The notes beneath the pieces were generated by a model, which made no database searches, was not told the origin of the DNA, and worked only from the letters and a program-made list of their open reading frames with translations. From Bacilli bacterium (GTDB lineage Bacteria > Bacillota_I > Bacilli_A > RF39 > UBA660), in contig JAZQNW010000006.1 of assembly GCA_045627525.1 (NCBI GenBank), positions 20,962-84,961 of the forward strand: 64,000 nucleotides of DNA, in the 5' to 3' direction. Positions within the stretch are counted from its first letter, which is position 1. Each line of letters opens with the position of its first letter. The translations under genes were made by a program, and so were the position numbers. Shown here piece by piece: positions 1 through 57,840 of the stretch.

Positions 1-2274
1 AGCAATAAAATGAAAATTAGTATTGATAAAAAGTATCCAACAATAACTGTTAATGTTACTGATGGTAAAACATATGCTAAGAGTCATAAAGCTAATATAA
101 AAATTAATGATACTGGTGGAAGTTCATTAAAATCTGGTCCAATTAATTTATACTATGGTTTTGGAACAAGTGCACCGGCTTGTAGTAGTTTAACAAAATC
201 TGTTAATGTTAATATTCCTGCATCAGCAAATAGTGCTACTAGTCAAGATATAACTATTAATAGTGGTACAGGAGCTGGAAAATTATATGTATGTACTAAA
301 GATAATACGTTATCTGATGCCGCTGGTAATGCTATAGATGTATCAGAACTATTTGATAGTGATATGTATTTAGATAATACTGGTCCTGTTGTTTCTGCTA
401 GTGTTGGAACTACATGGACTGATAATAAAGTAGTTATAACAGCAAATGCAACTGATAGTAATGTTGGAACAATAGGTGGATATTATATAAGTACATCTAC
501 AACTGCACCATCTGCTAGTGCAACAGGATGGCAAACTGGGAAGACGTTCTCAAAAGGAACAGGTACTTATTATATATGGGCAAAAGATAGTTTAGGAAAT
601 GTTTCAAGTAGTTATGCAACTGCTGTAGTTCCTGCTCAATGTGTTCTTGCAGCAAATACACTTTCAAAAGCATCAGTAACAGTAAATGAAAAATCAACAT
701 CAACTGTAACAATAACTGATGGTACTGTAAATAGTGCTACATCAAGTGATACATCAATTGCGACAGTTAGTGCAAGTGGTAGTAAAATAACAATAACAGG
801 AGCATCTTACGGCTCAGCAACAATAACAGTTGTTATGCCAAAAGGATCTAATTGTTCTGGTACTGTTACAAAGACTATTTCAGTTACTGTAACGCCTGTT
901 TATTACTATAGTGGTAATAATTATTATACAAATTTAAGTACTGCAGTTTCATCAGTAAGTGCAGGATCAACCATTAATGTTTATAGAAATGTTAGTGAAT
1001 CAACTACACCAACATTAAATAAGAATGTAACTCTTAATTTAAATGGTAAAACTATTACATATAGTGGTAGCACTCTTAATGTAGAGGCTGGTACATTTAC
1101 AATAACTGGTAGTGGTACATTAAAAACAACAACAAGTTATTCTAGCAGTTTATTGCAAGCATCAGGTGGAACTCTTAATATAGGTACTACTTCTACAAAA
1201 GGTGAAAGTACACCAAATATTACTGCTTCTGGAACTAGTTCGGCTATTTTAGATTCTAGTGGAACAGTCAATGTCTATAGTGGAACTTTAACATCAAAAA
1301 ATGATGGTATTATTGTTAAGGAAGGAACATTAAATTTTGGTAAAGACGGTACTAGTAGTTCTTATCCAAAGATTGCTGCTACAAGCAATGTAGCAAATAA
1401 AAATAATGTTTATGCCGGTATTTATATAAATGGTGATAAAAATACTGTTAATATTAAGAGTGGATATATTACTGCTATTAGTTATTCATCTGTTTATTTA
1501 GTTAATGGAACTTTAAATGTAGGTACTTCTGCTACCACTTCAAGCAAAGAGTATCCACGATTATCATCAACTGATTCGTCTTTGTATGCGGCCTTATATG
1601 TAAATAAGGGTACATTTAATATGTATGGCGGTCTTGTTGAAAATTTAGGAGAAAAAGATTCTACTTATAATGGTGCGACTGGTTCAGTTGGTTTATACGT
1701 TGGATCTAATTATGCTAGTGATGTAATATTACATGGTGGTTTAATATATTCAAAAAATGCTTGTGCAATTTTTAATGAATTAGTAAATCATTCTTTTAAA
1801 ATAAATGGTGATACGCATGTTGTTACAGCATCAAGTGCTAATTCAGCTATTCATGCTCAAAGAGACTCTAAAGTTTATGTTGGATCAGATTTACCGGCTA
1901 ATGGTGAAACTATTAGAGAACTCGAAAAAGGCGCAATAATGGTTGCACATAGTGGTTATTTAATATGGATTAGCGGAACAGCTAGTACTAGTAATGCTCA
2001 AATAGGTTCGTCAAAGGCATCTAAACCATATAGTGATTATGCACCAAACCTTTATACTGGAATTACAAATGATGCAGCAGCTGTAAGTTTAGGCGGTGGA
2101 AGCTTATATTTCTATAGTGGTGAGGTTCACTGCAATTCATCTACTACTGATACTTTTGCAAATTTAGGTAATAGTGGAAGAACAGTACATAAAGAAAAAG
2201 TAAAAACAACTGGTAAAAGGTCTTATGGTAATTTAACATCAGCAAGTTATAATTATTTATGGTATGTTTCATAA
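1..2274 (+). CDS. Giant modular surface protein, paralogue of 2907..6584; C-terminal 755 aa only, with the 5' end outside the window
   Basis: The reading frame is open from position 1 (S-N-K-M...). It aligns to residues ~400-1237 of the downstream paralogue, with two Ig-like modules, one Big_2-like domain and a G/T/S/N-rich repeat region resembling a parallel beta-helix. The N-terminus is not visible. Confidence 0.6.
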   Translation, partial: SNKMKISIDKKYPTITVNVTDGKTYAKSHKANIKINDTGGSSLKSGPINLYYGFGTSAPACSSLTKSVNVNIPASANSATSQDITINSGTGAGKLYVCTKDNTLSDAAGNAIDVSELFDSDMYLDNTGPVVSASVGTTWTDNKVVITANATDSNVGTIGGYYISTSTTAPSASATGWQTGKTFSKGTGTYYIWAKDSLGNVSSSYATAVVPAQCVLAANTLSKASVTVNEKSTSTVTITDGTVNSATSSDTSIATVSASGSKITITGASYGSATITVVMPKGSNCSGTVTKTISVTVTPVYYYSGNNYYTNLSTAVSSVSAGSTINVYRNVSESTTPTLNKNVTLNLNGKTITYSGSTLNVEAGTFTITGSGTLKTTTSYSSSLLQASGGTLNIGTTSTKGESTPNITASGTSSAILDSSGTVNVYSGTLTSKNDGIIVKEGTLNFGKDGTSSSYPKIAATSNVANKNNVYAGIYINGDKNTVNIKSGYITAISYSSVYLVNGTLNVGTSATTSSKEYPRLSSTDSSLYAALYVNKGTFNMYGGLVENLGEKDSTYNGATGSVGLYVGSNYASDVILHGGLIYSKNACAIFNELVNHSFKINGDTHVVTASSANSAIHAQRDSKVYVGSDLPANGETIRELEKGAIMVAHSGYLIWISGTASTSNAQIGSSKASKPYSDYAPNLYTGITNDAAAVSLGGGSLYFYSGEVHCNSSTTDTFANLGNSGRTVHKEKVKTTGKRSYGNLTSASYNYLWYVS
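7..1135. repeat. Long dispersed DNA repeat, copy 1: 7-640 matches 4062-4695 and 649-1135 matches 4968-5455 at ~95% identity
   Basis: Aligned by eye; tens of nt are identical between mismatches. Similarity decays steadily after ~1135 through 2274 (counterpart 6584). Confidence 0.8.
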
Positions 2275-2296
2275 TATTAAATTTATAGGAGGACAT

Positions 2297-2803
2297 ATGA
2301 AAAAGGATAATAAAAAATTAATATATATTTTACTTTCTATTGTTTTATTTATTGTTATTATATTTAGTGTTTTCTATCTTATATTAAAAAATGATATTTT
2401 CATTAATAATAAATCAAATATAACTGATGAAATACAAAAGAATCCAATAATAAATATTAAAGATACTACAAATGTTAAAGTAAGAGAAGGTAAAAAAATA
2501 AATACATCTAAATTGTTAAATGAAAAGCATGAGTTTAAATTTAATGATTGCAAATTAGTATTTAATAAAATAGATTTAGTTGCTGATTCTAATGAAGGTA
2601 TTACTACTTTTACAGCTGATTTTTCTAGTACTAAAGAAATTATATCTACTGCATTGAATATTGTTTTTCTAGATAAAAAAGGTAATGTTATTCATGGTTA
2701 TGAAATTAATATGGAAAATATTAATGCTAATGAAATAAAACAAGTAGTATGGAAATTTCCTGATGATGTTAGTAATGCATATGATTTTAAAATTGAAAAA
2801 TAG
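2297..2803 (+). CDS. Small single-pass membrane protein, partner of the upstream giant protein; function unknown
   Basis: ATG at 2297 follows a TAGGAGG RBS; the ORF-track start is 2264. Basic N-terminus (MKKDNKK), one TM helix (LIYILLSIVLFIVIIFSVFYLIL), then a ~120-aa extracytoplasmic domain ending ...SNAYDFKIEK. It is paralogous to 6586..7125. Confidence 0.55.
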   Translation: MKKDNKKLIYILLSIVLFIVIIFSVFYLILKNDIFINNKSNITDEIQKNPIINIKDTTNVKVREGKKINTSKLLNEKHEFKFNDCKLVFNKIDLVADSNEGITTFTADFSSTKEIISTALNIVFLDKKGNVIHGYEINMENINANEIKQVVWKFPDDVSNAYDFKIEK

Positions 2804-2809
2804 AATTAA

Positions 2810-2834
2810 GAAATGGTTAGGCCATTTCTTTTTT
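2810..2834 (+). terminator. Rho-independent terminator
   Basis: GAAATGG-ttagg-CCATTTC hairpin followed by a T6 run, directly after the 2803 stop. Confidence 0.7.
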
Positions 2835-2906
2835 ATATATTTTTTAATTTAACTTTTAATTTTTTTTATTATGATGTATAATTTTATTAGAATAGGTGTG
2901 GTGGAT

Positions 2907-5900
2907 ATGAGTAAGAAGAAAAATAATAAAGGTTTTACTTTAGTAGAATTATTAGTTGCAATAACTATTATGGGCATTATTACAGCTTTAGCTTTACCTG
3001 AAGTAAGACGAATTCAAGCAAATAATAAAAATAAAAAATATGAAACATATTCTAAATCTTTAGAAAGTGCAGCTAAGTTGTATGTTGATTCACATAGTAC
3101 TGATTTGTTTGGTGTTTCAGCAAATGCTTGTGATAAGGTATCTTTAAGTTTAGATTTAAAAGGTTCATCTTTAGTAAAAGATTATGGAGTAAATAATATT
3201 TCATGTTCGGGGGAAGAAACTCCAACTGATGCAAGTGACGATTCATATGTTATTATTAATAAAACTGGTGACAAGTATGATTATAAAGTGTATTTGGTTT
3301 GCAAAGATGAAAATCATAATATAGTATATAAATCAAGCGAAGCACCAGTTTGTGGAGTTGTTGATGAATATGGCTTTGAAAAGGCATTATCAACTAACGG
3401 TACTGGTGGTAAATGGATAAGCTTTAATGAGAATAATTCTCAAGCTACTATTAACAAAGCTACTTATGGTAATATTGAATTTACTATAAAAAATAAAACG
3501 GCATTCGAGTCAATAAATCCTAAAATTAATTATTGGTGGAGTGAATGCGATATCAATGGAGAAAATTGTCAACAAAAAGCAATTAAAACTAGAAATTTAA
3601 GCTCATCTAAAGATGGTAATGATAATGTATTATCAGCTAAAATAAATGGTATACCACAAAATGGGGTATATAAATTAGTAATACAACCTGTAAATGTTAT
3701 TACTACAAATGGTAAACAATTACTTGAAAATTTTGAGTCCGGTATTTTTAAGATGGATAGTATTCAGCCAGATAAACCTATTTTTGATCCAGCTACAAGT
3801 TATGGTTGGAAGGGTAAAACATTCACTTCAGCTAAGAATTATGTGTTTAATGCATCAACAAATGAAAGTGAAAAAGGTTCATCTCTTACTTGGTCATATA
3901 AATTTCCATCTAGTGAGTCATCATTCACAAAGTATGCTAGTTCAAATTGTGTATCAGGAACTGATTGCTATAAAATAAAAACACAAGTATTTACTAGTGA
4001 GGTTAATGATAATCTTCAAGTAAAAGTATGTGATCAGGCAAACAATTGTAGTACTAGTGATAAAATGAAAATTAGCATTGATAATACTTTGCCAACAATG
4101 ACTGTTAATGTTACTGATGGTAAAACATATGCTAAGAGTCATAAAGCTAATATAAAAATTAATGATACAGGTGGAAGTTCATTAAAATCTGGTCCAATTA
4201 ATTTATACTATGGTTGGGGAACGAGTGCACCAGCTTGCAGTAGTTTAACAAATTATGTTAATATTAATATTCCATCTTCAGCAAATAGTGCTACTAGTCA
4301 AGATATAACTATAAATAGTGGTACAGGTGCTGGAAAATTATATGTATGTACTAAAGATAATACGTTATCTGATGCCGCAGGTAATGCTATAGATGTATCG
4401 CAATTATTTAATAGTGATATGTATTTAGATAATACTGGTCCTAAAGTTTCAGCTAGTGTTGGAACTACATGGACTGATAATAAAGTAGTTATAACGGCAA
4501 GTGCAACTGATAGTAATGTTGGAACAATAGGTGGATATTATATAAGTACATCTACAACTGCACCATCTGCTAGTGCAACAGGATGGCAAACTGGGAAGAC
4601 ATTCTCAAAAGGAACAGGTACTTATTATATTTGGGCAAAAGATAGTTTAGGTAATGTTTCAAGTAGTTATGCAACTGCTGTAGTTCCTCTACAATGTATT
4701 ACAGCAGATAATAAACTTTCAAAAACATCAGTAACGATAATAGAAAAGGAAAAGGCAACAGTAACAATAACTGATGGTACAGTAAGTAGTGTTACCTCAA
4801 GTAATACTTCTGTTGCAACTGTTAGTGGAAGTGGTAGTACAATAACAATAACTGGTGTATCAGTTGGTACTGCGAATATAACTGTTGAAATGCCAAAAGG
4901 AACAAATTGTAGTGGTACTGTTAAAAAGACTATTTCAGTAACAGTAAATCCAATTCCATGTGTTCCTGCAGCAAATACACTTTCTAGTACATCAGTAACA
5001 ATAAATGAAAAATCAACATCAACTGTAACAATAACTGATGGTACAGTAAATAGTGCTACATCAAGTGATACATCAATTGCGACAGTTAGTGCAAGTGGTA
5101 GTAAAATAACAATAACAGGAGCATCTTACGGCTCAGCAACAATAACAGTTGTTATGCCAAAAGGATCTAATTGTGATGGTACTGTTACAAAGACTATTTC
5201 AGTAACAGTTAAGCCAATGTATTATTATTCTGGTAGTACATATTATGCTAATTTAAAAACTGCAGTTTCATCAGTAAGTGCAGGATCAACCATTAATGTT
5301 TATAGAAATGTTAGTGAATCAACTACACCAACATTAAATAAGAATGTAACTCTTAATTTAAATGGTAAAACTATTACATATAGTGGTAGCACACTTAATG
5401 TAACTGCTGGTACATTTACAATAACTGGTAGTGGTACTTTAAAGACAAATACAAGTTATTCTGGTAGATTATTACAAACAGCAGGTGGAACTCTTAATAT
5501 AGGTACTACTTCGACTGTTGGTCAAAGTTATCCTACTATAACTCAGCAAGGATCAAATAGTACTTTACTTGGAGTTAATTCAGGAACAGTAAATGTATAT
5601 AGTGGTAAATTATCTTCTAATTTTGATGGTATTAATGTAGGTTCTAGTGGTACACTAAATTTTGGTAAAGGTGGAACTAGTTACAACTATCCATTTGTTG
5701 AGGGTGCAAAAGGGGCATCAGGAAGTAGTTCTAACTTTATGGCAATATATACTACGGGTACTACAAATATTATTAGTGGTAAAGTAAGCGCATCTCAATA
5801 TAGTACTGTTTATTTAAGTTCAGGTACTTTAACTATAGGAACACAAACTAATAGTAACCAAATAAATAGAACATGGCCTTTAATAACTGGTACAGCTGGT

Positions 5901-6584
5901 GCTGGAACTTTAAGATTACATGGTGGAACTCTTAAAATGTATAGTGGTCGTGTTGATAATGTAGGAAGTGCAACATCGGTTTATAATGGTACATCAGGAA
6001 GTGTAGCATTAGATATTGAATCTAATTATACTAATGATTTAATAATATATGGTGGTTTATTCTATTCTAAAAATGCATGTTCTATTTATACAGATTCTGC
6101 TAAAGTATTAAAAGTAAATGGTAATACACATGTTGTTACATCATCAAGTGCTAATTCGACAATTCATGCTCAAGGTAATGCTTCTGTTTATGTGGGTTCT
6201 GAACTTAATAGTGGAACATATGATATGGTTCGAACAGGTGGCAATGGTGTATATCTAGCAGCTAAAAATGGTTATGCAATTTGGACGAGTGGTACTGGTA
6301 ATGCTCAGATAGGTTCTTCCAAAGTTACAAGCAGTTGGGCTGATTATTCTCCTACTATATATTCAGGATACACCACTGCAACTTCTGTTAAGTCAGGTTA
6401 TAAAATTTGGATGTATAGTGGTAGAGTATTTTGTAATGGTCAGGAATTTGTATATGGAACATTTGCTAATTCAGCTAAAGCTACAAGAACTAGTTCAAGT
6501 GGAACTTATAGTTATAATGATGCTTATGGCAGTGTTTTAGTACAAGTTCCATATAAGTATCTATGGAAAAGGACGGTAAGTTAA
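2907..6584 (+). CDS. Giant modular type IV pilin-like protein with a prepilin (class III) signal; ~1225 aa
   Basis: N-terminus MSKKKNNKG|FTLVELLVAITIMGIITALALPE has the classic G-F-T-L-x-E prepilin cleavage/methylation motif and a hydrophobic alpha1 helix. A pilin-like head with Cys pairs is followed by Ig-like modules, two tandem Big_2-like domains and a G/T/S/N-rich beta-helix-like C-terminus. The ORF begins at 2871, but ATG 2907 after a GGTGTGGTGG RBS fits better. Confidence 0.7.
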   Translation: MSKKKNNKGFTLVELLVAITIMGIITALALPEVRRIQANNKNKKYETYSKSLESAAKLYVDSHSTDLFGVSANACDKVSLSLDLKGSSLVKDYGVNNISCSGEETPTDASDDSYVIINKTGDKYDYKVYLVCKDENHNIVYKSSEAPVCGVVDEYGFEKALSTNGTGGKWISFNENNSQATINKATYGNIEFTIKNKTAFESINPKINYWWSECDINGENCQQKAIKTRNLSSSKDGNDNVLSAKINGIPQNGVYKLVIQPVNVITTNGKQLLENFESGIFKMDSIQPDKPIFDPATSYGWKGKTFTSAKNYVFNASTNESEKGSSLTWSYKFPSSESSFTKYASSNCVSGTDCYKIKTQVFTSEVNDNLQVKVCDQANNCSTSDKMKISIDNTLPTMTVNVTDGKTYAKSHKANIKINDTGGSSLKSGPINLYYGWGTSAPACSSLTNYVNINIPSSANSATSQDITINSGTGAGKLYVCTKDNTLSDAAGNAIDVSQLFNSDMYLDNTGPKVSASVGTTWTDNKVVITASATDSNVGTIGGYYISTSTTAPSASATGWQTGKTFSKGTGTYYIWAKDSLGNVSSSYATAVVPLQCITADNKLSKTSVTIIEKEKATVTITDGTVSSVTSSNTSVATVSGSGSTITITGVSVGTANITVEMPKGTNCSGTVKKTISVTVNPIPCVPAANTLSSTSVTINEKSTSTVTITDGTVNSATSSDTSIATVSASGSKITITGASYGSATITVVMPKGSNCDGTVTKTISVTVKPMYYYSGSTYYANLKTAVSSVSAGSTINVYRNVSESTTPTLNKNVTLNLNGKTITYSGSTLNVTAGTFTITGSGTLKTNTSYSGRLLQTAGGTLNIGTTSTVGQSYPTITQQGSNSTLLGVNSGTVNVYSGKLSSNFDGINVGSSGTLNFGKGGTSYNYPFVEGAKGASGSSSNFMAIYTTGTTNIISGKVSASQYSTVYLSSGTLTIGTQTNSNQINRTWPLITGTAGAGTLRLHGGTLKMYSGRVDNVGSATSVYNGTSGSVALDIESNYTNDLIIYGGLFYSKNACSIYTDSAKVLKVNGNTHVVTSSSANSTIHAQGNASVYVGSELNSGTYDMVRTGGNGVYLAAKNGYAIWTSGTGNAQIGSSKVTSSWADYSPTIYSGYTTATSVKSGYKIWMYSGRVFCNGQEFVYGTFANSAKATRTSSSGTYSYNDAYGSVLVQVPYKYLWKRTVS
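4062..5455. repeat. Long dispersed DNA repeat, copy 2; carries an extra ~260-nt domain-encoding insert at 4690-4950 relative to copy 1
   Basis: See copy 1. Confidence 0.8.
4690..5215 (+). repeat. In-gene tandem duplication encoding two Big_2-like Ig domains (2 x ~87 aa)
   Basis: Protein repeats LSKTSVTIIEKEKATVTITDGTVSSVTSSNTSVATVSGSGSTITITGVSVGTANITVEMPKGTNCSGTVKKTISVTV and LSSTSVTINEKSTSTVTITDGTVNSATSSDTSIATVSASGSKITITGASYGSATITVVMPKGSNCDGTVTKTISVTV. Paralogue A has one copy. Confidence 0.75.
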
Positions 6585-6585
6585 T

Positions 6586-7125
6586 ATGAATAGTGAAAAT
6601 GAAAAAGCACAAGGTAATATTGAAAATAAAAAAAGTAATAAAACTTTACTTATTATTGTAATTCTTTTGTTAGCTATAGCATGTGTTATTGCGGGATTAA
6701 TCTTTTTAAATAATGATACTAAAAAGAATGAAATTGTTCCAACACCAGATGAGGAACTTCGTCCAGCAGTAGATATAGATAATAAGCAAAATGTAAAAAT
6801 AGAGAATAATGTTAAAACTAATGTTTCTAAAAAATTAAATGAAAAACATACTTTTGATTTTATTGATAATAATAAAATTACAATTGATAATATTAGTTTA
6901 AAGGCTGACGCTAATACTGGAGATACTACTTTTAAATTTAGTTTAACTAGTAGTGTTAATATAGAAGCAAAAGCAGTTGGATTATCATTTGTTGATAAAG
7001 ATGGTAATAGTATAAATGGTTATGAAATAACTATTGAAAATATTGCTGCTAATGATGCAAAAGAAATTACTTTAACTTTTAGAGATGATTTTTCAAATGC
7101 ATATGACTTTATTATGGAAGTATAA
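6586..7125 (+). CDS. Small single-pass membrane protein, partner of the upstream giant protein; function unknown
   Basis: Its ATG lies 1 nt after the 6584 stop, so it is probably translationally coupled. One TM helix (LLIIVILLLAIACVIAGLIFL). The C-terminal domain aligns with 2297..2803 (...NEKH.F.F.D...GYEI..ENI.AN...SNAYDF). Confidence 0.55.
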   Translation: MNSENEKAQGNIENKKSNKTLLIIVILLLAIACVIAGLIFLNNDTKKNEIVPTPDEELRPAVDIDNKQNVKIENNVKTNVSKKLNEKHTFDFIDNNKITIDNISLKADANTGDTTFKFSLTSSVNIEAKAVGLSFVDKDGNSINGYEITIENIAANDAKEITLTFRDDFSNAYDFIMEV

Positions 7126-7132
7126 TATTTAA

Positions 7133-7157
7133 GAAATGGGTAACCATTTCTTTTTTT
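7133..7157 (+). terminator. Rho-independent terminator
   Basis: GAAATGG-gtaa-CCATTTC hairpin followed by a T7 run, almost identical to the 2810..2834 terminator. Confidence 0.7.
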
Positions 7158-7185
7158 ATGTTATAATTAATTTGTTGGTGGTTTT

Positions 7186-8949
7186 ATGAAAAATTTTAAA
7201 GAAAAATTAGCTTTAGTTCCTACTAAACCTGGTAGTTATCAAATGAAAAATAAAGATGGAGTAATTATATATGTTGGAAAAGCTAAAAATTTAAAAAAAA
7301 GATTGCGTAGTTATTTTACTGGTAATGTTACTGGCAAGACTAAAATGCTAGTTGAAGATATTGATGACTTTGAATATATAGTTACATCTTCAGAATTAGA
7401 ATCATTAATACTAGAAATTACTTTAATTAAGAAATATGATCCTAAGTATAATATTATGCTTACAGATGATAAAACTTATCCTTATATTGAATTAACTAAG
7501 GAAAAATATCCAAGATTAAGAGTAGTTAGAAATGTTAAAAAGAAGAAAAATTTAAACTACTTATATGGTCCATATCCTAATGTTACAGCGGCAAGAAAGA
7601 CAGTAAATATGTTAAATAGACTTTATCCTTTGAGGAAATGTGAACATTTAAATAAAGAAGGATGTTTGTATTATCATATAAATGAGTGTTTAGGTTACTG
7701 TATGAAGGATATTAATAAAGAAACAATTAATGTTATGAAAAAGGAAATAATTTCGTTTTTAAAAGGTGATGCTACATTAATTAAAGATAAAATTAATAGT
7801 GAGATGTTAAGATCAAGTGAGGCTATGAATTATGAAAGAGCCTTGGAATTAAAAAATACTTTGGAAGATATAGATATTACATTAAGAAAGCAAAAAATTG
7901 ATTTAAATGATAATTATAATTTTGATTTAATAAATTATTATGTTGATAAGAATTATTTATCTATACAAATATTTTTTGTACGAGATGGTTTATTAGTAGG
8001 AAGAGACAAATCAATACTAAGCTGTGATATTGATGTAGTAGAGCAAGTTATTGAATACATTTTAAAATTTTATGATAAAACAGCAATTTTACCTAAAGAA
8101 TTATTGGCTCCAGATGGTATAGACTGTGATTTACTTAGTGAATATTTAAAAATTAAAGTTAATAATCCTAAGAAAGGTAAACTTAAGAATTTGTTAGATT
8201 TAGCTAAAGAAAATGCTAAAGAAGTATTAGAAGAGGAAGAGGAAACTTTAAAGAAAAATGATGATTTGAGAATTAAGGCAATTAATGAATTAAAGATAAT
8301 ACTTAATCAAGAGAATGTTTCTAGAATGGAAGCATTTGATAATAGTCATTTATTTGGAACTTTTTATGTAGGTGGAATGGTTGTTTATGATGACTTTTTA
8401 CCTTTAAAAGATGAATATCGTAAATTTAAGATAAGCGTTGATGTAAAAGATGATATATCAGCAATGAAAGAAGTATTATATAGAAGATATTATCGTGTTT
8501 TGATGGAAAATTTAACAAAACCTGATGTTATTGTAATGGACGGCGGAATTGCTCAAGTTAGGGTTGCTAAAGAGATTATTGATTCGCTTGGATTAAATAT
8601 AAGAGTAATAGGACTAGTAAAAAATAATAAACATAAAACTAGTAATATTATTGATGAAAATGGAAATGTTTTAAATGTTAGTTCAGATAGTAATTTATTT
8701 TTATTTTTTAGTAGAATTCAGGAAGAAGTTCATAGGTATGCTATTAGTTATCATAGAAGTATTAAGTCTAAGGGTGCTTTAGCATCTGTACTAGATGTTG
8801 TTCCTGGTATAGGTGAAGTAAGAAGAAAAGAATTATTGAAGAAATTTGGTTCTTTAAAGAGAATTAAAGAGGCTTCTTTAGATGAGCTTAGTGAAGTTGT
8901 TTCATTAGAAGTAGCTAAAAATTTACTTACTTATTTAAAAGATGTATAG
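7186..8949 (+). CDS. uvrC: Excinuclease ABC subunit C
   Basis: N-terminal GIY-YIG motif (GSYQM...IIYVGKAKNLKKRLRSYF); length 587 aa; C-terminal HhH region. Confidence 0.92.
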   Translation: MKNFKEKLALVPTKPGSYQMKNKDGVIIYVGKAKNLKKRLRSYFTGNVTGKTKMLVEDIDDFEYIVTSSELESLILEITLIKKYDPKYNIMLTDDKTYPYIELTKEKYPRLRVVRNVKKKKNLNYLYGPYPNVTAARKTVNMLNRLYPLRKCEHLNKEGCLYYHINECLGYCMKDINKETINVMKKEIISFLKGDATLIKDKINSEMLRSSEAMNYERALELKNTLEDIDITLRKQKIDLNDNYNFDLINYYVDKNYLSIQIFFVRDGLLVGRDKSILSCDIDVVEQVIEYILKFYDKTAILPKELLAPDGIDCDLLSEYLKIKVNNPKKGKLKNLLDLAKENAKEVLEEEEETLKKNDDLRIKAINELKIILNQENVSRMEAFDNSHLFGTFYVGGMVVYDDFLPLKDEYRKFKISVDVKDDISAMKEVLYRRYYRVLMENLTKPDVIVMDGGIAQVRVAKEIIDSLGLNIRVIGLVKNNKHKTSNIIDENGNVLNVSSDSNLFLFFSRIQEEVHRYAISYHRSIKSKGALASVLDVVPGIGEVRRKELLKKFGSLKRIKEASLDELSEVVSLEVAKNLLTYLKDV

Positions 8950-8964
8950 TAAATAAAAAAAATG

Positions 8965-8992
8965 CAAATAGTATTAACTATTTGTTTTTTTT
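8965..8992 (+). terminator. Rho-independent terminator
   Basis: CAAATAGT-atta-ACTATTTG perfect hairpin followed by a T8 run. Confidence 0.7.
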
Positions 8993-9019
8993 ATAGTATA
9001 ATTATACATAGAATAGGGA

Positions 9020-11410
9020 GTGGTTAATTTGAAGAAAAATAATCGCGGATTTACAATTGTTGAAGTATTAGCAGTTATTGTAATACTTGGTATTTTAATG
9101 GTTGTTGCTGTTCCCGCAGTTTATAAATATTTAAGTAAATCAAGAAACTTTTCTTATGATAATATGTATAAAAGTGTATTTAGTGCTGCACAAAATTATC
9201 ATCTAGAAAATAATGATGTATTTGTTGCTGACGAAGACCATGCATTTTATGATGAGGATTTTGTAAAAAACACATTAGTAGAAGAGCAATATTTGGAGCC
9301 ATTATTAGATCCTGCATCTGAAGGTAATCAATGTTCTGCTGAGGTTTTTATTCTTCTACCTTCATCTGAATCTCAAGAGCAAGATTCAGAAACATTGGAA
9401 GATTTTTATTATAAAGTTCATTTAAAATGTTCTGCTCATGAAGGAACAAAAACATTTAATAGTGTTGGAGATATAGTTGATGAAGATGCAATAAATGAAG
9501 GTATTAAAGATGCTATTAAGAATACTACATTTAAGATGAAATATGATAATAAAAATGGAGCTTCATATACTCCTGGTACTTGGACTAATAAGAATATATG
9601 GATTGGTGAATTTCAGGCTGGTGAAAAATATAAAAATGTTAAATATCAATATGTTTCTACTGTAAATGGTAACTGTACTGAAGGAACTCCTAAAGATATA
9701 GACATGGTTAATGTTCAATCTGCTACATTTCAAGAAAAACAAAAAATATGTGTTCGTCAAGTTACAAGTAAAGGAGTTGAAGGGGATTGGAGTAGTCCTA
9801 TTGATTTAAATATTGATAAGACAGCTCCAACAATCAAAGTTACTTTAGCAGACGCAAGTCAGAATTATAAACAACTGGCAGATACTGTGGAATTTAATGG
9901 TACTAACAATTTAAAGGAATTTGGTGATGATAAGTTATTTGTTGCTGGTGACTTGAGATTAAAAATAGAAGTAACTGATGATGAATCTGGTTTGCCTGAA
10001 AAATTTCATATTAATTATAATAATTATGGTGATACTAGTTATAATGAAATTTATACAGAAAATTCAAGTACTGGTGATAAAACTTATAGTAGTGGCACTG
10101 ATAATAATAAAAAATATGATTCAGGTAAAATTTTAGATGGTTATAGGGTAGTAGAAATTATTGCTACTGATAATGCTGGTAATGAAAGAAAGATTAAATT
10201 AAAATTTGTAGCTGGTTCTAAACCTCCTACAATTAATGCTACAGTAACTAATGGTATAACTACTTGTACAGCAACTAGTGAATCAAAAGATAAAGTTGTT
10301 GAGTGCCCAGGCTGGTTTAATACAAAAGTTCCAAAAGTTACTATAAATGCTACTGGTGTTGTTAATATAGAAAATAATTTTCACATTGATTATAATACTC
10401 CAAGACAATCAAGTTATGTTGAAAATTATTCTTCAAATAGTAGTACAGGAGATAAGAAATTTACGTCTGGTAGTAGCACATCTAAAACATATAATACAGG
10501 TGAAATTTCTGATGGTTATAGAATTGTAAAAATTACGGTAACGAATGAAAATAATAATTCATCTGTATTGACGTTAAAACTAAAAGTTGATACAAAACCT
10601 CCTACAGTTTCAGTTAACTATTCTAATAATAATAATGGTGAAAAAATAATTAATTGTAGTACATCTTCTCCTAATTCTTGTAATTATAGTACATTGATAG
10701 ATTATAAAATGAAGGGTACATATACTTATAGTGATAAGGATGGTAGCTGGGATGGTAGTGGACTAAAAGCTACTTATACTGCTCAATATAATGCTTCCGG
10801 TAATAGTGATTATGTTGATACACTAACATCATCCGGTACTATGGAATATAAAGAAACACGTGTTACTACTTTATCACCAGGGTATCGCAGAATATATTAT
10901 ACTTTTACTGATGTTGCTGGAAATGAAAGCCATATTGATGCTAAATTAAATATTGGTAAAGATATATGTATAGCAGAATCTTCTGGTACAAATTATGGGC
11001 AATATTATGCTCAATGTCAAAGTTATATAATACCAAGAGATAAGTGGAATAGTTGTCAATTTTATGGTAATAAATCATTTACTGCATCTTGGAATAATTG
11101 TCCTAATGATGATGAGGAATTCCATATTCTTCCTACTAAAATAGGTACTAAACTTGTTAGTTATTATCATACTAAATATTATAAATTGTATTGTGTTAAT
11201 TCAGATGGTTTAATTGTTGAACATACTATGCCATATGTTTGTTTAGATGGTATTTCATCTTGTCCAGGACAAACTCATATGTGCCCTAATTTACAAAATA
11301 GTGATTATTTAGTTATTGATGATTCAAGTCTTGATTTTCCTAATGATGGTGATACTGCTGTTTCTAATGCAATAAAAGATATATTTAATTGGGTTACTAG
11401 TTTATTCTAA
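9020..11410 (+). CDS. Large modular type IV pilin-like protein with a prepilin signal; ~795 aa, module set different from 2907..6584
   Basis: N-terminus (M)VNLKKNNRG|FTIVEVLAVIVILGILMVVAVPAV is a prepilin-type N-terminal cleavage/methylation domain. It carries repeated Ig-like modules (...DGYRVVEIIATDNAGNE... / ...DGYRIVKITVTNEN...) and a Cys-rich C-terminal module. The start is either GTG 9020 or TTG 9029 after a GGGAGTGG RBS. Confidence 0.65.
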   Translation: MVNLKKNNRGFTIVEVLAVIVILGILMVVAVPAVYKYLSKSRNFSYDNMYKSVFSAAQNYHLENNDVFVADEDHAFYDEDFVKNTLVEEQYLEPLLDPASEGNQCSAEVFILLPSSESQEQDSETLEDFYYKVHLKCSAHEGTKTFNSVGDIVDEDAINEGIKDAIKNTTFKMKYDNKNGASYTPGTWTNKNIWIGEFQAGEKYKNVKYQYVSTVNGNCTEGTPKDIDMVNVQSATFQEKQKICVRQVTSKGVEGDWSSPIDLNIDKTAPTIKVTLADASQNYKQLADTVEFNGTNNLKEFGDDKLFVAGDLRLKIEVTDDESGLPEKFHINYNNYGDTSYNEIYTENSSTGDKTYSSGTDNNKKYDSGKILDGYRVVEIIATDNAGNERKIKLKFVAGSKPPTINATVTNGITTCTATSESKDKVVECPGWFNTKVPKVTINATGVVNIENNFHIDYNTPRQSSYVENYSSNSSTGDKKFTSGSSTSKTYNTGEISDGYRIVKITVTNENNNSSVLTLKLKVDTKPPTVSVNYSNNNNGEKIINCSTSSPNSCNYSTLIDYKMKGTYTYSDKDGSWDGSGLKATYTAQYNASGNSDYVDTLTSSGTMEYKETRVTTLSPGYRRIYYTFTDVAGNESHIDAKLNIGKDICIAESSGTNYGQYYAQCQSYIIPRDKWNSCQFYGNKSFTASWNNCPNDDEEFHILPTKIGTKLVSYYHTKYYKLYCVNSDGLIVEHTMPYVCLDGISSCPGQTHMCPNLQNSDYLVIDDSSLDFPNDGDTAVSNAIKDIFNWVTSLF

Positions 11411-11427
11411 AAGGAGTGATTTTATAC

Positions 11428-11898
11428 ATGTCTAAAAAAGTAAAAAAATTTGGAATTATAATCTTAGTTTTGGGGCTTATTGTTACTACTACAGGTATTG
11501 TGTTAAATTTTACTCTTACTAATAGGAATAAAAAAGGAATTGTTCCAACAGAAAAGAAAGCTAATGATATACCTACAACGGATCATCCTGGAAGTGTAGA
11601 TGATATTACTACAAAGGATTTATCAGATGAACATTGTTCTGGAGATATATGTGTTTTAAATATTAAATTACAATATTATGATGGAAAAGGTATGGCATAT
11701 ATTAAGGTTAAGAATAATGGTACTTTAATACCTAGCGGTGTATTGATTGTTAAAGATGTTAATGATGATAATAATAGCTTATATTTCTATCATGATGAGT
11801 TGGCTAATTCTATGGAATTTGAAACTAATGTTGAATTTAGTGATGAAAAACAATTAAATATGGTTGATTATACAATTGAATTAAAAACAGAAGAATAG
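11428..11898 (+). CDS. Small single-pass membrane protein, partner of the upstream pilin-like protein; function unknown
   Basis: ATG 11428 follows an AAGGAG RBS; the ORF-track GTG start is 11416. One TM helix (FGIIILVLGLIVTTTGIVL) then a ~110-aa extracytoplasmic domain. Same architecture and position as 2297..2803 and 6586..7125. Confidence 0.5.
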   Translation: MSKKVKKFGIIILVLGLIVTTTGIVLNFTLTNRNKKGIVPTEKKANDIPTTDHPGSVDDITTKDLSDEHCSGDICVLNIKLQYYDGKGMAYIKVKNNGTLIPSGVLIVKDVNDDNNSLYFYHDELANSMEFETNVEFSDEKQLNMVDYTIELKTEE

Positions 11899-11970
11899 TA
11901 ATATTTTAAAGTGAATAGGTTTTACCTATTCATTTTTTTGTTGTATAATTGTTATAGTTTGGTGATTATT

Positions 11971-13710
11971 ATGAGTAAAATAAAAATTATGGATGAAGTT
12001 TTGGCTAATAAGATAGCAGCTGGAGAAGTAGTTGAAAAGACTATGAATGTTGTTAAGGAGTTAGTAGAAAATTCAATTGATGCTAAAAGTAATGAAATTA
12101 CTATAAAACTGATTGATTCAGGTGTTAAGGAAATTGAAGTCTCTGATAATGGTATTGGAATGGACGAAGAGGATGCTAAAATGGCTTTTTCTAGGCATGC
12201 TACATCTAAACTTAAAAATCTTGATGATTTGTTTTATATTGAATCATTAGGATTTAGAGGAGAAGCTTTACCATCTATAGCATCTGTTTCTAAAGTTAGG
12301 CTTAAAACCTCTGATGGAAAAGTTGGAACATTAGTTACTTTATGTGGTGGAGAAAATATAAACATTGAAAGATGCGATTTGCAACAGGGTACTACTATTA
12401 CAGTGACTGATTTGTTTTATAATACTCCAGTAAGATTAAAATATTTAAAAAATTTATATGTTGAACTAGCTAATATTGTTGATTATGTTAATAAAATGGC
12501 TTTGTCTTATCCAAATATCAAATTTACTTTGATAAATAATGATAAGGTTTTACTTAGTACTGATGGAAATGGTGATTTATTAAAAGTTATTTATGGAATA
12601 TATGGTGCAGATATTACTAAGAAGATGATTGAAATAAATGGTGAAAATGATGATTATTATATAAGCGGTTTTGTATCTTATCCGGAAATAACAAAAAGTA
12701 ATCGAAATGGTATTACTACTTTGGTAAATGGTAGAGTTATTAAGAATAATGATTTAAATAAATCAATTATTGAGTGTTATCATACTTATATTCCAAAAGA
12801 TAAATATCCAATAGTTGTTTTAAATATTGATGTTGATCCAATATTAATTGATATTAATATACATCCTACTAAAATGGATATTAAATTTTCTAAAATGGAT
12901 TCATTAAAAGAATTAGTTATTAATTTAATTACTAAAAAATTAAAGGAATTAACTTTAATTCCTAATGCTTCTGTTAGAAATTATTCATCTGTTACTGAAG
13001 TTAAAAATCAGATTAGGGAGATAGAAGAAGATAAAAAAGAAGATATAACTTATGAAGAAATAAAATTAGATTTTTCTGTTAGTGAAGAGAAAGAAAGCTA
13101 TAATGAAGAAAAAAAGATTGAAGAATATCGTATTAAGGAAATGATTCCTAAGGGTATAGTTTATTCTACTTATATAATTGCTGAAAATGAAGAAGGTATG
13201 TATGTGATAGATCAACATGCTGCGGCAGAGAGAATTAACTATGAAAAAGTATTAAATTCATTAAAAGAAAATGTCATTGTAGTTGATTTATTAATACCTG
13301 TTAAAATAGAATTGTCTAGTGCGGAATATTTAATTATTAAAGAAAATTTTGGTATTTTACAAGAATATGGTTTTATACCTGAGGAGTTTGGAATAAATAC
13401 AGTTATTATTAGAAGTCATCCAAATTGGATTAAAGAAGATATAGCAGAAGAGTGCATTCGCAAGGTTATTGATATAATTATTAGTCAAGAAAAATTTGAT
13501 TTTGATCAGTTTGTTTGGCATATGGCTGCTACAATGGCGTGTAAGATGTCTATTAAAGCTAATGATTATATTTCTTACGATGATCAGGTATGGCTACTTA
13601 ATGAACTTCGTAAATGTGATAATCCTTTTACTTGCCCTCATGGTAGACCTACTATTATTACTTATACAAAATATGATTTAGAAAAGCTATTTAAGCGTAG
13701 CATTGACTAA
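11971..13710 (+). CDS. mutL: DNA mismatch repair protein MutL
   Basis: GHKL ATPase motifs (IAAGEVVE, VKELVENSIDA, DNGIGM) and a C-terminal dimerisation/endonuclease region. The likely start is ATG 11971 after a GGTGA RBS; the ORF opens at 11911. Confidence 0.9.
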   Translation: MSKIKIMDEVLANKIAAGEVVEKTMNVVKELVENSIDAKSNEITIKLIDSGVKEIEVSDNGIGMDEEDAKMAFSRHATSKLKNLDDLFYIESLGFRGEALPSIASVSKVRLKTSDGKVGTLVTLCGGENINIERCDLQQGTTITVTDLFYNTPVRLKYLKNLYVELANIVDYVNKMALSYPNIKFTLINNDKVLLSTDGNGDLLKVIYGIYGADITKKMIEINGENDDYYISGFVSYPEITKSNRNGITTLVNGRVIKNNDLNKSIIECYHTYIPKDKYPIVVLNIDVDPILIDINIHPTKMDIKFSKMDSLKELVINLITKKLKELTLIPNASVRNYSSVTEVKNQIREIEEDKKEDITYEEIKLDFSVSEEKESYNEEKKIEEYRIKEMIPKGIVYSTYIIAENEEGMYVIDQHAAAERINYEKVLNSLKENVIVVDLLIPVKIELSSAEYLIIKENFGILQEYGFIPEEFGINTVIIRSHPNWIKEDIAEECIRKVIDIIISQEKFDFDQFVWHMAATMACKMSIKANDYISYDDQVWLLNELRKCDNPFTCPHGRPTIITYTKYDLEKLFKRSID

Positions 13711-19173: not shown

Positions 19174-19249
19174 TAATGGATTTTATTGTTCCTTTTTTTT
19201 ATTATTTATTGTATAATTATTATAAGGTAGAGTAGTAGGGGTGCTAGTT

Positions 19250-20923
19250 ATGTCTGATAATAAAGCTTTAGATATTATTTTTAGCAAAATTAATAATGTT
19301 CTTACAGATATATCAAGAAAAGTATCTTTTATTGAAAAGTCTGAGAAGTTATTAGATTATGAATCAGAGATATTGAGAGTATCAGAAAGTGATATTCTTC
19401 TTTTGGCACGCTATTATTTTGAACTAAATAATAGTGATAAAAGTAAATTTAGAGATTTAGCGGTAAACATCATGGGAAGTGACGATGTAGTTAATCATTG
19501 TTTAAACTTATATTATTTAGATAAAAAGGATTTAACAACTGTTTCACAATATAGTTTTGAAAGTAAGGAATTGGAGAAGTTTAGAAAACTTTTACAAGAA
19601 GATGAAAGAAGATTACAAAAATTAATTGAAGATAGACCAATAGAAAGTTTAAGAGCAAAAAGAAAAAGAATTCTTGATTTATCATCTTATTTATCAGGAT
19701 CAAATTTTGAAATAGATGATGTTGATGATTTTTTACATATACTTGATTATATTAATTTTACCTCAAAAGAAAAGACTTATGTTTTAACTAGAATTTTTAA
19801 TGGTAGCGTTAAATTTTATAAAAGAATGGTTAATAATTATGAAAAATCAAAAGTTTCACCAAAGTTATTAGCTAGTCATAGCAATGTATCTTTAATAGGT
19901 AATAATAATGTTATATTACCTAATAAAATATATAATTCTTTAATTAATAATTTTGATAATTTAAGTATTATTGATAGAGTATTAGAAAAATATAATTTAT
20001 CTTATTGTATTTCTATTAATAATGATAATTCTGCTGATATTTTGGATTTAGCTATAGAAGAAGCTAATAAATTAGCAATAAATATGGTTAGAACTAATGA
20101 TTTTTCAGAATTTAAATTATTTGATGATGGTATTTTAGTTAAAAAATTCAAATTAAGTGAATTTGTTATTGAAAATATTGATAGAGCATATGAATTTTTT
20201 AAAAAGAATAAAAATATTATTGAAAAAATGGAATTGGCTGATAGGGAAAATAGTGAAGATATTTTAAATAACCTTAAAGGTAAAAAATGGGATGAGGTTA
20301 GGGAATTTTTAGATTCTATTTATGGTCATGAGTTTGATAGTTATTTTTTACTAGAAGTATTAAAAAGGTTATGTCTTATTATAGAATTAGATTATTTGGA
20401 TTTTAGTCAACAAGACTTTTTAGATGAGCTAGAAAATTGCTGTGTTGATTTAAAAATTATGCTTGATTATTATGAAAAAGAAATTAATCCTGAAGATACA
20501 TTAAGTATTGAATATCCATATTTATATTTATATAAAGGGAATAAAGCTTGTTTTGAACAAGATATTTTAAATATTCCAGCTGATTTTTATGGCGAATTAT
20601 ATGAAGTTCTTTCAGAAATAAGAACTGAGAGAGCAACAGGTACTGATTTTGATATTGTATTAGAAAATAAAATAAATTTACGAGTGTCTGAAAATATAAA
20701 TGTATATTATATTCCATTTGATAGTTTTATTTTATTAATAGGTGTATTTGTTGTTGGTGATAAGGATTCCTATGCTGTTATTGATAATAGAAAAACTGCT
20801 ATTTTAAATATAATTGATTCTATAAATGATTATAGTGAACAAAAAATTAACAATTTGATTTCAAATGACAAAAAAGTTACTGATAGGATATTAAGTTTTT
20901 TAGATAATAATAGAATAGTTTAA
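19250..20923 (+). CDS. Hypothetical protein, ~557 aa, acidic and alpha-helical
   Basis: Long ORF with an AGGGGTG RBS; no motif I recognise. Confidence 0.5.
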   Translation: MSDNKALDIIFSKINNVLTDISRKVSFIEKSEKLLDYESEILRVSESDILLLARYYFELNNSDKSKFRDLAVNIMGSDDVVNHCLNLYYLDKKDLTTVSQYSFESKELEKFRKLLQEDERRLQKLIEDRPIESLRAKRKRILDLSSYLSGSNFEIDDVDDFLHILDYINFTSKEKTYVLTRIFNGSVKFYKRMVNNYEKSKVSPKLLASHSNVSLIGNNNVILPNKIYNSLINNFDNLSIIDRVLEKYNLSYCISINNDNSADILDLAIEEANKLAINMVRTNDFSEFKLFDDGILVKKFKLSEFVIENIDRAYEFFKKNKNIIEKMELADRENSEDILNNLKGKKWDEVREFLDSIYGHEFDSYFLLEVLKRLCLIIELDYLDFSQQDFLDELENCCVDLKIMLDYYEKEINPEDTLSIEYPYLYLYKGNKACFEQDILNIPADFYGELYEVLSEIRTERATGTDFDIVLENKINLRVSENINVYYIPFDSFILLIGVFVVGDKDSYAVIDNRKTAILNIIDSINDYSEQKINNLISNDKKVTDRILSFLDNNRIV

Positions 20924-20934
20924 GGGGTGAAGAT

Positions 20935-22707
20935 ATGGTTTCACAAAATAGTTTAATTAATTTACTACGTGATAATATAACTAGAAAAAAAGAATTAATT
21001 AATGAATATTATCATTATCAAGATTCTTCACTTTCTTATAAGGAGGAACTAGAAAAGAAATTAACGAGAGAAATATGGAAAATAGCTTTAGTAGATTTTA
21101 AAAGAATTGAAGAAATTATTTCTAATTTTGATATAAGTGATTTGGAAAAAGAAAATATTATTAATCCTTTAAATGATGCTTGTAAAATATTAGAGATAAA
21201 TTATAATGAGGGTACTACATTAGAGTTAGATAATACGCAGCTAATTGCTATTAATAGTTTTATAAATAATTTAAGAGAATATATTAGTAGTCGTAAGAAT
21301 TATTTTTTAAATCATGATTATGATATTAAAAAATTAGAAAAATTAACTGATAAGTATAAGAAATTAGTTACTTCTTTGAAAAATCCTAATAATAAGGAAT
21401 TTATTTCTGATTATGATGTGTTAAAATGTTTATTTAATGAGACTAAAATTTCTGAGGAAGCTAAACAAAATATTTTGATTATGCTTATTAAATATAATAA
21501 AAGAATTTATGATTATAGAATGGGCAGGGGTCCTCTTTTAGAAGTAGATAATTATATTAATTTAACTGAAGAAAGAATAAGTGATTTGTTTAAAAAATTT
21601 GGATATAATTTTTTAGATTTAAATGATCAAGAAAAAAGATGGATAATAGATAATGGCTATTTTGAAATAGCAGATTCAGTATTTAAAACATTAAGAGATA
21701 ATAATTTTCCTAATATAGATTTAGTAACTAATGGTCATGTTCTTACATCTTTAATTTTAGGCAGCAATAGAAGTGTAATTGAAAATAGTCTTGCACTGGG
21801 AAATAAATATGGTTTAAGTGCTAGTCAATTATTACAAATAAGTAGTTGTTTAATTGAACCACAAGAGTTAAATACTGATAATAAATTAAAACCTTATATT
21901 GTTGGTAGATCTACAGATTTTATTTTAAATTTAGATTTATTTGATAGATATGGATTATCAGCTAAGTATGTTTTTAATAGATGTAGGGAATTACTTACAT
22001 TTCCTAATCACATATTAGTTAGAAATTTAGAAATATTTATGCAATATGATTTTAAGTTTAATAAAAGAAGAAATACTTTAATTGATTCTAGTTTGGTTGC
22101 TTTAATGAATCCTAATTTTGATGTTATTGTTGATCAATTTATGGAAACTCATCCTGCTGGTTTTAAGTATATTAAAGATAATTTATGTGCTTTAAGAACT
22201 TATACTGATCCATTTGATAGTGTTTTTTATAGTTTATATCAGGCTAGTCACTCTAAAGATGAAGTTGTTGCTTTTAGATTAATTGAAACGGGAAACATTA
22301 ATAAGATTTGTTTAATGGGTAATATGTCTGATAATAGTGATAATTATTTTGGTATTAATGATGATAATAAGAGGGAAGTTACTGCTGCTATAATTCCACA
22401 TTTTAATAAAAAAGGGGAATATATATCGGCTTTAGAAAATGCACAATGTGTAGAAATTGATAATGATATTTTCGATAATCCGTTTATTTTAAAATTAAAT
22501 GAATATTCAACAATAGATCCGCTTTTATATTATTTTGATGGAATTAGAATATCAAAATTGAAAGTTCTTAGAATATTTGGAACACTTATAAACAATGGAA
22601 TAGTTCCAGATGAAGATAGTTTACTATTTTCTGTTACTTATAATTCTATTATTAATCAAGAGGAATTTGATAAAATTGCTTTAATAATAAAAGAGGTGGT
22701 ACAGTAA
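20935..22707 (+). CDS. Hypothetical protein, 590 aa
   Basis: Long ORF with an AAGGGGTGAAG RBS, in an operon with 19250 and 22707; no motif I recognise. Confidence 0.5.
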   Translation: MVSQNSLINLLRDNITRKKELINEYYHYQDSSLSYKEELEKKLTREIWKIALVDFKRIEEIISNFDISDLEKENIINPLNDACKILEINYNEGTTLELDNTQLIAINSFINNLREYISSRKNYFLNHDYDIKKLEKLTDKYKKLVTSLKNPNNKEFISDYDVLKCLFNETKISEEAKQNILIMLIKYNKRIYDYRMGRGPLLEVDNYINLTEERISDLFKKFGYNFLDLNDQEKRWIIDNGYFEIADSVFKTLRDNNFPNIDLVTNGHVLTSLILGSNRSVIENSLALGNKYGLSASQLLQISSCLIEPQELNTDNKLKPYIVGRSTDFILNLDLFDRYGLSAKYVFNRCRELLTFPNHILVRNLEIFMQYDFKFNKRRNTLIDSSLVALMNPNFDVIVDQFMETHPAGFKYIKDNLCALRTYTDPFDSVFYSLYQASHSKDEVVAFRLIETGNINKICLMGNMSDNSDNYFGINDDNKREVTAAIIPHFNKKGEYISALENAQCVEIDNDIFDNPFILKLNEYSTIDPLLYYFDGIRISKLKVLRIFGTLINNGIVPDEDSLLFSVTYNSIINQEEFDKIALIIKEVVQ

Positions 22708-34644: not shown

Positions 34645-34700
34645 TTGTGTTTTTATTGATTTTTAACTGATTTTATGATAAAATATAGCCGGTGATTTTT

Positions 34701-40378: not shown

Positions 40379-40406
40379 TATAATTTATTATTATAGGAAT
40401 GGTGTT

Positions 40407-56333: not shown

Positions 56334-56346
56334 CTTGGAGGTATTT

Positions 56347-57297: not shown

Positions 57298-57840
57298 ATG
57301 AATGGGTTAATTATTGCTATTGGAGTAGTAGTTTTAATATTACTAATTTGGTTTATTGCAGTATCTAATAAATTAAATAAAGCAATTGTTAAAATTGAAG
57401 AAGCTGATTCTGATATTGATGTTGCTTTAACAAAAAGATATGATGTTTTAACTAAAATGTTGGATACTGTTAAAGGATATGCTAAACATGAAAAAGAAGT
57501 TATAATTGAAACAATAAATCTTAGAAAAGGTATGAGTATTTCTGAAAAAAATGAAGCTAATAATAAAATGGATGAAGCTTTTGGTAAACTTAATGTAGTT
57601 GCTGAAAATTATCCGGATTTAAAAGCTTCTGAAAATTTTAAGACTTTACAATTATCTATTAGCGATGTTGAAGAACATCTACAAGCTTCAAGAAGATTGT
57701 ATAATGCTAATGTTTCTAGATTTAATCAAATGATTGTTACATTCCCAACTAGCATTGTTGCTGGAATGAAGAGCTTAAAGAAAAAAGATTTCTTTGAAGC
57801 AGAAGAGATAAAAAAACAAGATGTAAAAATTGAATTTTAA
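57298..57840 (+). CDS. lemA: LemA family protein
   Basis: N-terminal TM helix then LemA motifs (KIEEADSDIDVALTKRYDVL ... YPDLKASENF). Confidence 0.85.
   Translation: MNGLIIAIGVVVLILLIWFIAVSNKLNKAIVKIEEADSDIDVALTKRYDVLTKMLDTVKGYAKHEKEVIIETINLRKGMSISEKNEANNKMDEAFGKLNVVAENYPDLKASENFKTLQLSISDVEEHLQASRRLYNANVSRFNQMIVTFPTSIVAGMKSLKKKDFFEAEEIKKQDVKIEF

Follow-up and report, generated by a model that had tools for sequence, protein, structure and literature searches.

Gene conversion of pilin genes is classical in Neisseria (pilE/pilS), where the donors are silent and truncated and a variable exposed region is exchanged. In Helicobacter pylori, gene conversion and segmental concerted evolution have been described for the adhesin paralogues babA/babB, sabA/sabB/hopQ and homA/homB (PMC3960876). 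There, full-length expressed paralogues within one genome are similar over one segment and diverged over others, a pattern attributed to RecA-dependent intragenomic recombination that yields chimeric genes (PMC3960876). Streptococcus sanguinis PilB and PilC are modular pilins, and more than 1,200 such proteins with 264 architectures have been catalogued (Raynaud et al. 2021, PMC8179133). They are probably displayed at the filament tip (PMC8179133). Among the tandem lipoprotein paralogues of Staphylococcus aureus, recombination, and not the boundaries of open reading frames (ORFs), sets the evolutionary units (PMC2568036). Modular type IV pilins and gene conversion among paralogous adhesins, the two ingredients of the present case, are therefore already known. 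Here we analyse a 64,000-nucleotide (nt) stretch of contig JAZQNW010000006.1 from a Bacilli bacterium (assembly GCA_045627525.1; hereafter the window), which opens with two tandem genes, A and B, encoding giant modular pilin-like proteins. An internal segment of these old paralogues has very probably been homogenised by homologous recombination between them, a textbook-type gene conversion and not a new mechanism.

The likeness to Neisseria lies in gene conversion acting on a type IV pilin gene, but A and B are complete genes, and what they have in common is a conserved stalk. The bab-type pattern is closer in form: paralogues in one genome, with one segment similar and others diverged. The H. 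pylori genes, however, encode outer-membrane proteins of a diderm, lie at dispersed loci and are homogenised at the 3' end, and chimeric forms of them are documented both among strains and in vivo. A and B, in contrast, are tandem pilin-like genes of a low-GC spore-former, share an internal tract and are known here from one genome. With the modular pilins of Raynaud et al. (PMC8179133) they share a class III signal peptide and a pilin module onto which non-pilin modules are grafted C-terminally, and by these features they are unusually large members of that class. Unlike PilB and PilC of S. sanguinis, they are 1119 and 1225 amino acids (aa) long, carry several immunoglobulin (Ig)-like domains and end in a module without a Pfam or Protein Data Bank (PDB) match; they lie among housekeeping genes and not in a pil locus, and a small membrane protein follows each. 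The S. aureus cluster likewise consists of tandem surface-protein paralogues with recombination-defined units. Its conserved unit runs from the 3' end of one ORF across the spacer into the 5' end of the following ORF (PMC2568036), whereas that of A and B lies wholly within the ORF. Little work has been done on modular type IV pilins from monoderm gut bacteria, the probable type of organism here.

Two units of identical layout, both on the plus strand, fill the first 7.2 kb of the window. Gene A (1..2274) is open in frame from base 1 and is cut by the window edge, which leaves 1086 nt of its 5' end outside; the 3' two-thirds that are present account for the C-terminal 757 aa of P0002, a modular prepilin-like protein of 1119 aa. 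Its partner gene a' (2297..2803; 168 aa), with an AGGAGG ribosome-binding site 5 nt upstream, encodes an N-terminal transmembrane segment and a domain of ~120 aa, and a terminator-like hairpin (2808..2830, stem AAGAAATGG/CCATTTCTT) ends the unit. Gene B (2907..6584) encodes the 1225-aa modular prepilin-like protein P0001 (100% identical). The partner gene b' (6586..7125; 179 aa, P0112) starts 1 nt past the gene B stop codon, and a hairpin with the same stem (7131..7152) ends the second unit. Genes A and B both appear to be intact, and each has a partner gene and a terminator to itself. Among 5.8 billion proteins searched, P0001 and P0002 were the only two close matches, and a single 149,085-bp NCBI contig carries both.

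A first, sequence-only reading of the window had described near-identical tracts of ~95% identity in the two genes. The tracts lie where it placed them, at an identity slightly lower than it gave. Positions 1-640 match 4056-4695 (offset 4055) with 93.75% ungapped nt identity, and positions 649-1140 match 4968-5459 (offset 4319) with 93.3%. The gene A copy of the tract (1..1140) is 93.2% identical to B overall and contains a near-perfect core at 46-1073; in gene B the tract comprises a left block (4056..4695) and a right block (4968..5459). It measures ~1.1 kb in A and ~1.4 kb in B, and 73 of the 1132 aligned positions differ. Downstream, A 1141-2271 and the 3' part of B are 60% identical as far as the stop codons. 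Contrary to that reading, the divergence is not progressive across the 3' half. Instead, the last long perfect run ends at 1073 and is followed by a graded zone of ~120 nt (1074-1194), with the best single change-point at A 1194/B 5513 (log-likelihood gain 196). The proteins stay collinear through to the stop codon, in agreement with the earlier description. The left edge lies at about positions 1-46, with nine mismatches in bases 1-45 and then a perfect run of 68 nt.

In the full-length protein alignment, A residues 1-362, 363-745 and 746-1119 are 49, 92 and 48% identical to B. The tract is thus internal and is bounded on both sides by diverged homologous sequence. The right edge falls ~80 residues inside the C-terminal module and not at a domain border. 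Having two boundaries, one of them away from a domain border, strengthens the case for recombination. No other repeat of such high identity is present in the 64 kb window, and chance is therefore not a candidate explanation.

The contrast extends to synonymous sites. Nei-Gojobori estimates of synonymous (dS) and nonsynonymous (dN) divergence are 0.138 and 0.051 for the tract (dN/dS ~0.37), and 0.866 and 0.498 for the 3' part of A versus B; dS between the partner genes a' and b' is 0.68. Where a degenerate amino acid is conserved, the codon is identical in 92% of cases in the tract versus 63% downstream (Fisher p = 8e-15). Since the GC content of third codon positions (GC3) is only 7-14% throughout, the flanks are near synonymous saturation and the 63% represents the compositional baseline. 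A tract dS of 0.14, against 0.87 downstream and 0.68 in the partner genes, excludes constraint at the protein level and supports homologous recombination, as the sequence-only reading had proposed for these collinear paralogues. Without recombination, the central stalk would have to be under much stronger purifying selection than both ends. The tract does encode structural Ig-like domains, and its dN/dS is compatible with such selection, but selection acting on a protein leaves synonymous sites free to change, and at these the tract is six times less diverged. The right boundary, in addition, falls within the C-terminal module. Constraint on the DNA itself was considered in the form of a structured RNA or an antisense gene and rejected: the tract has no Rfam family and no sizeable antisense ORF. 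The synonymous-site contrast already largely refutes purifying selection, which we regard as a most improbable account of the pattern.

The tract matches its flanks in GC content and GC3, which gives no indication of foreign DNA. This bears on the possibility that A, B or both acquired the module from elsewhere (a different strain or species, or a third paralogue that has not been sampled) and not from each other. Part of the tract does travel. Its first domain, of ~130 aa with two conserved Cys, recurs in PF09479 surface proteins of 1700-1950 aa from related gut bacteria, where its identity is ~40% and it is sometimes present in two copies. However, no copy closer than ~40% was found in the 5.8 billion proteins, the GTDB species representatives or the Joint Genome Institute (JGI) metagenomes, and homologous flanks on both sides make direct exchange between A and B simpler. 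Import is accordingly an unlikely source of the shared segment.

The mismatches in the tract are not evenly spread but clustered. The longest perfect runs measure 134, 129 and 99 nt, whereas the maximum averaged 71 under permutation (P = 0.005), and none of 5000 permutations reached the observed variance of the gaps between mismatches. Residual patches with 18-31% divergence remain, for example at 634-670 and 885-939. The clustering suggests several patchy events, either overlapping conversions or patchy repair of heteroduplex; the latter fits with MutS and MutL being encoded in the window. Perfect runs of 99-134 nt should be adequate substrates for RecA-dependent recombination.

Runs of this length could also let a short-read assembler switch between copies, so that the repeat might have been collapsed or duplicated during assembly, or strains joined into a chimera. 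Yet the copies differ at 73 positions, the genes are diverged and collinear with a partner and terminator each, and copy switching would leave the pairwise identity profile unchanged. Moreover, independent assemblies hold an A-type and a B-type 3' end. An assembly artefact is therefore extremely unlikely.

These independent sequences are two short Logan contigs that were found with partner-protein searches; both cover 3' ends and stop short of the tract. The first (L037, SRR17233021) has 96.4% nt identity to window positions 1831-2814, the 3' end of A and a', with a dS to A of 0.05. The second (L036, ERR11637135) has a B-type 3' end, 69% identical to B and 42.5% to A at the aa level, and a b'-like partner (54%). 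In the 3' region, dN is 0.25 between B and L036 versus 0.52 between A and B, and the flanks group by gene, L036 with B and L037 with A. Because L036 groups with B, the A-type and B-type lineages predate the split, which makes the duplication old and the homogenisation of the tract a later event. The two tract copies (dN 0.05, dS 0.14) are far more alike than B is to its L036 counterpart, and this contrast between tract and flank is the incongruence that would be expected of a later intragenomic exchange. Another paralogue pair of the same protein family (L007) shows a smooth, monotonic decay of identity from the N- to the C-terminus, without a central spike.

Two details of the L037 contig concern its own sequence. 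Relative to window 1831-2814, its positions 1-981 contain three 1-nt deletions in short A-runs, which shift the reading frame of the gene A end and of a'. Its first 18 nt carry the B-type bases AATTCGACAATT, as in the B copy of a short island at 6108-6202, versus AATTCAGCTATT in A, at the edge of the corresponding island at 1795-1889. These bases could be a patch of micro-conversion or an effect of low-coverage assembly at the contig end. The island itself (1795..1889) is 95 nt long, 80% identical to 6108-6202, belongs to repeat family D3/D5 and lies within the 3' region of ~55-60% identity.

Several points weigh against conversion between A and B as we propose it, or limit its dating. The tract dS of 0.14 is about three times the strain divergence between A and L037, and the event is thus not very recent; the earlier description of the conversion as recent holds in a relative sense only. 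The ratio of tract to flank age is rough, with synonymous sites saturating near a proportion of differences (pS) of 0.5 at this GC3. The left boundary is visible at the protein level only, as the 5' DNA of A lies outside the window. A single genome carries both genes. Searches of the protein database, of the GTDB species representatives and of the JGI metagenomes turned up no related strain or species in which the tract is covered: the scan of GTDB representatives returned only relatives of 29-40% identity, and a metagenome scan with the tract protein returned only matches of 31-36% over residues 13-200. Finally, it is formally conceivable that the module was transplanted once from an unsampled third copy.

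With these points considered, conversion between A and B would have proceeded as follows. An old tandem duplication of a two-gene unit, consisting of a giant modular pilin-like gene, a membrane-anchored partner and a terminator, would have been followed by deep divergence of the A and B copies. Long after the duplication, one or more non-reciprocal homologous exchanges would have homogenised the stalk. We infer that each overwrote an internal segment of one gene with that of the other, whichever the direction of transfer, probably in several patchy events that were presumably RecA-dependent. The converted part would extend over the Ig-like stalk and ~80 residues into the C-terminal module. The N-terminal pilin module and adjoining domains, the rest of the C-terminal module and the partner genes, all ~50% identical, would have remained unconverted. 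In effect, the giant pilin paralogues would exchange the Ig-like stalk by recombination and keep both ends distinct. Any adaptive value of such an exchange would be a matter of conjecture.

The two blocks of the tract in gene B are separated by an extra 264-nt (88-aa) Ig-like/Big_2-like unit at 4704..4967, corresponding to an 88-aa gap in A. Tandem Repeats Finder reports a period of 264 at 4710-5218, with 1.9 copies and 80% match, and the exact position of the extra unit inside this tandem repeat depends on the alignment. In a three-way alignment, the Ig-like unit of A is near-identical to the second unit of B, and the first unit of B is ~80% identical to that of A. The extra unit has weak Pfam matches to Big_2 and T2SS-T3SS_pil_N.

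The A and B copies form direct repeats that share a codon phase: base 1 pairs with 4056, and each of the two bases begins a codon. No inverted repeats were found in positions 1-12000 or in the whole window. The sequence-only reading had suggested that the tracts could serve as substrates for recombination that deletes or inverts the intervening ~4 kb. With direct repeats deletion or duplication is possible, and inversion is not. An unequal crossover would yield an in-frame chimera with the N-terminal part of A and the C-terminal part of B, with loss of 4055 or 4319 bp, and the reciprocal product would be a triplication. In-frame A::B chimeras formed by deletions of these two sizes are thus a testable prediction of the repeat geometry. 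At 6-7% divergence and with mismatch repair present, A::B exchange should be infrequent. It is doubtful that the direct in-frame repeats are an active substrate at which frequent unequal crossover or conversion swaps the divergent, presumably ligand-binding C-terminal modules from one pilin scaffold to the other or collapses the two cassettes into a single chimeric gene. If true, this would make a pilus-tip adhesin variable at the population level in an uncultured, probably gut-dwelling bacterium, and would constitute a bab-like system on the modular type IV pilins of a monoderm.

A dedicated variation system, such as a shufflon-like or Neisseria pilE/pilS-like programmed switch, would draw on the same features: the proteins are pilin-like and surface-exposed by type, and direct repeats that match perfectly over as much as 134 nt can serve as recombination substrates. 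Such a switch is nevertheless very unlikely. There are no silent promoterless cassettes, since neither A nor B lacks a signal peptide, partner gene or terminator, and the conserved stalk, not a variable end, is what A and B have in common. The sole tyrosine recombinase in the window (59153-60052) is 52 kb away and unlinked. A shufflon of the R64 PilV type needs inverted sites on either side of alternative C-terminal segments and a linked recombinase, and was rejected with no inverted repeats found and the recombinase unlinked. The pilE/pilS arrangement needs silent, N-terminally truncated donors and was likewise rejected, both A and B being complete.

A class III signal peptide comprises a short basic leader ending in Gly, a hydrophobic segment of ~20 residues and a Glu at position +5 (the N_methyl motif). 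The products of A, B and a third gene, C, all start with such a peptide, ending in K-x-G/FT[LI]VE (the slash marks cleavage); the cleavage contexts are KKNNKG/FTLVELLVAITIMGI in B and KNKLG/FTLVELLVAITIMGI in A (P0002). PF07963 scores 36.4 bits in B versus a cut-off of 21.2, and TIGR02532 scores 29.0 bits in B and 25.2 bits in A versus a cut-off of 16.3, with C also above the cut-off. The earlier designation of these genes as pilin-like is thereby borne out. The N-termini align to helix alpha-1 of the solved pilins PilA (8tj2) and PilE1 (8pfb) and of geopilins. An AlphaFold2 (AF2) prediction of P0002 contains a 57-residue helix at residues 13-69 and strands at 74-135, with a predicted local distance difference test (pLDDT) score of 70-86 over residues 10-140. 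The N-terminus of A is thus predicted to adopt a pilin fold, with a long alpha-1 helix packed on a beta-sheet. Assembly of A and B into a type IV filament may follow from these features. Scans of the window ORFs of at least 150 aa against Pfam and NCBIfam detected no PilB-, PilC-, PilD- or PilM-O-like genes, and many such ORFs matched no family.

At the protein level, the tract corresponds to three Ig-like domains plus the initial ~80 aa of the C-terminal module. An AF2 model of the tract protein (window 1-900; pLDDT 86.4) contains three tandem beta-sandwiches, and Foldseek matched it to the S-layer proteins SbsB and EA1, to SGBP-B and to cadherin-type tandem Ig arrays.

The C-terminal ~450 aa contain recurrent G-T-[LVF]-x-[LIVMF]-x-x-G motifs. 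The full-length AF2 model of A is poor beyond the pilin module (pLDDT 50), and the C-terminal fold cannot be named from it; the motifs, together with short periodic strands in this low-confidence model, suggest a beta-solenoid. A word-based search of the 5.8 billion proteins with the C-terminal module returned nothing. HMMER against 1.84 billion representatives returned P0002 and weak partial matches (E no better than 1e-11), almost all of them limited to about the first 60-290 positions of the profile. The C-terminal module is presumed to be the ligand-binding end. It is a candidate determinant of specificity because it is free to diverge, as is the pilin-proximal region.

The partner proteins a' and b', each with an N-terminal membrane segment and a domain of ~120 aa, are 42% identical (60% at the nt level). 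They are indeed much more diverged than the tract, and the earlier figure of roughly half aa identity was slightly high. The hairpin stems that follow them (AAGAAATGG...CCATTTCTT) are identical, though the adjoining partner genes are not. Protein a' matches no Pfam family. Pairing of a giant pilin with a partner is kept only among close relatives, namely L036, L037 and the three cassettes of the window. Distant partner relatives (25-32%) at L038:10001-10480 and L040:10001-10450 lie beside an Mrr/nSTAND3 protein or a sortase and not beside pilin genes, and the partner domain is therefore more widespread than the pairing. The partner protein as a conserved module of the pilin cassette was rejected, as its distant relatives adjoin unrelated genes. 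Related giant pilin genes elsewhere also occur as lone genes amid housekeeping genes. In L036 (1-2047), the pilin 3' end and partner are followed by clpP on the opposite strand, versus uvrC in the window; the cassette thus occupies different housekeeping contexts among related organisms.

An ATG at 2871 is an unlikely alternative start for gene B; TGTATAAT at 2875-2882, a match to consensus only, overlaps it. A promoter scan was uninformative, with 77 sites versus 84 expected by chance.

The third cassette (9020..11898, plus strand) consists of gene C (9020-11410; 796 aa, prepilin-like) and the small membrane protein gene c' (11416-11898). Gene C scores 31.4 bits for PF07963, and the prepilin motif was present in the scan. 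It matches A and B only over the N-terminal ~130 aa, at 31-40%, and has no near-identical tract in common with either; c' is 24-27% identical to a' and b'. The cassette lies between uvrC and mutL, and gene C contains an internal repeat of ~70 aa (FHINYNN.../FHIDYNT...).

The neighbours of the pilin cassettes in the window are uvrC, mutL, miaA, sporulation genes and tRNA synthetases. The organism is low-GC, and its spore-formation genes in the window comprise those for GPR, SpoIIP, SpoIVB and SpoIIGA. The cassettes are interleaved with the repair genes uvrC and mutL (region 7186-13710); mutL (11911-13710) and mutS (37065-39617) lie 23 kb apart. Sizeable ORFs of 253-590 aa without a Pfam or NCBIfam match occur at 19241-22707, 33100-35591 and 39617-41735. 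Two tandem DUF3137 paralogues (55332-56333 and 56335-57294), which contain blocks of 72-74% nt identity and are followed by a LemA gene (57298-57840), are a second, older tandem duplication in the window.

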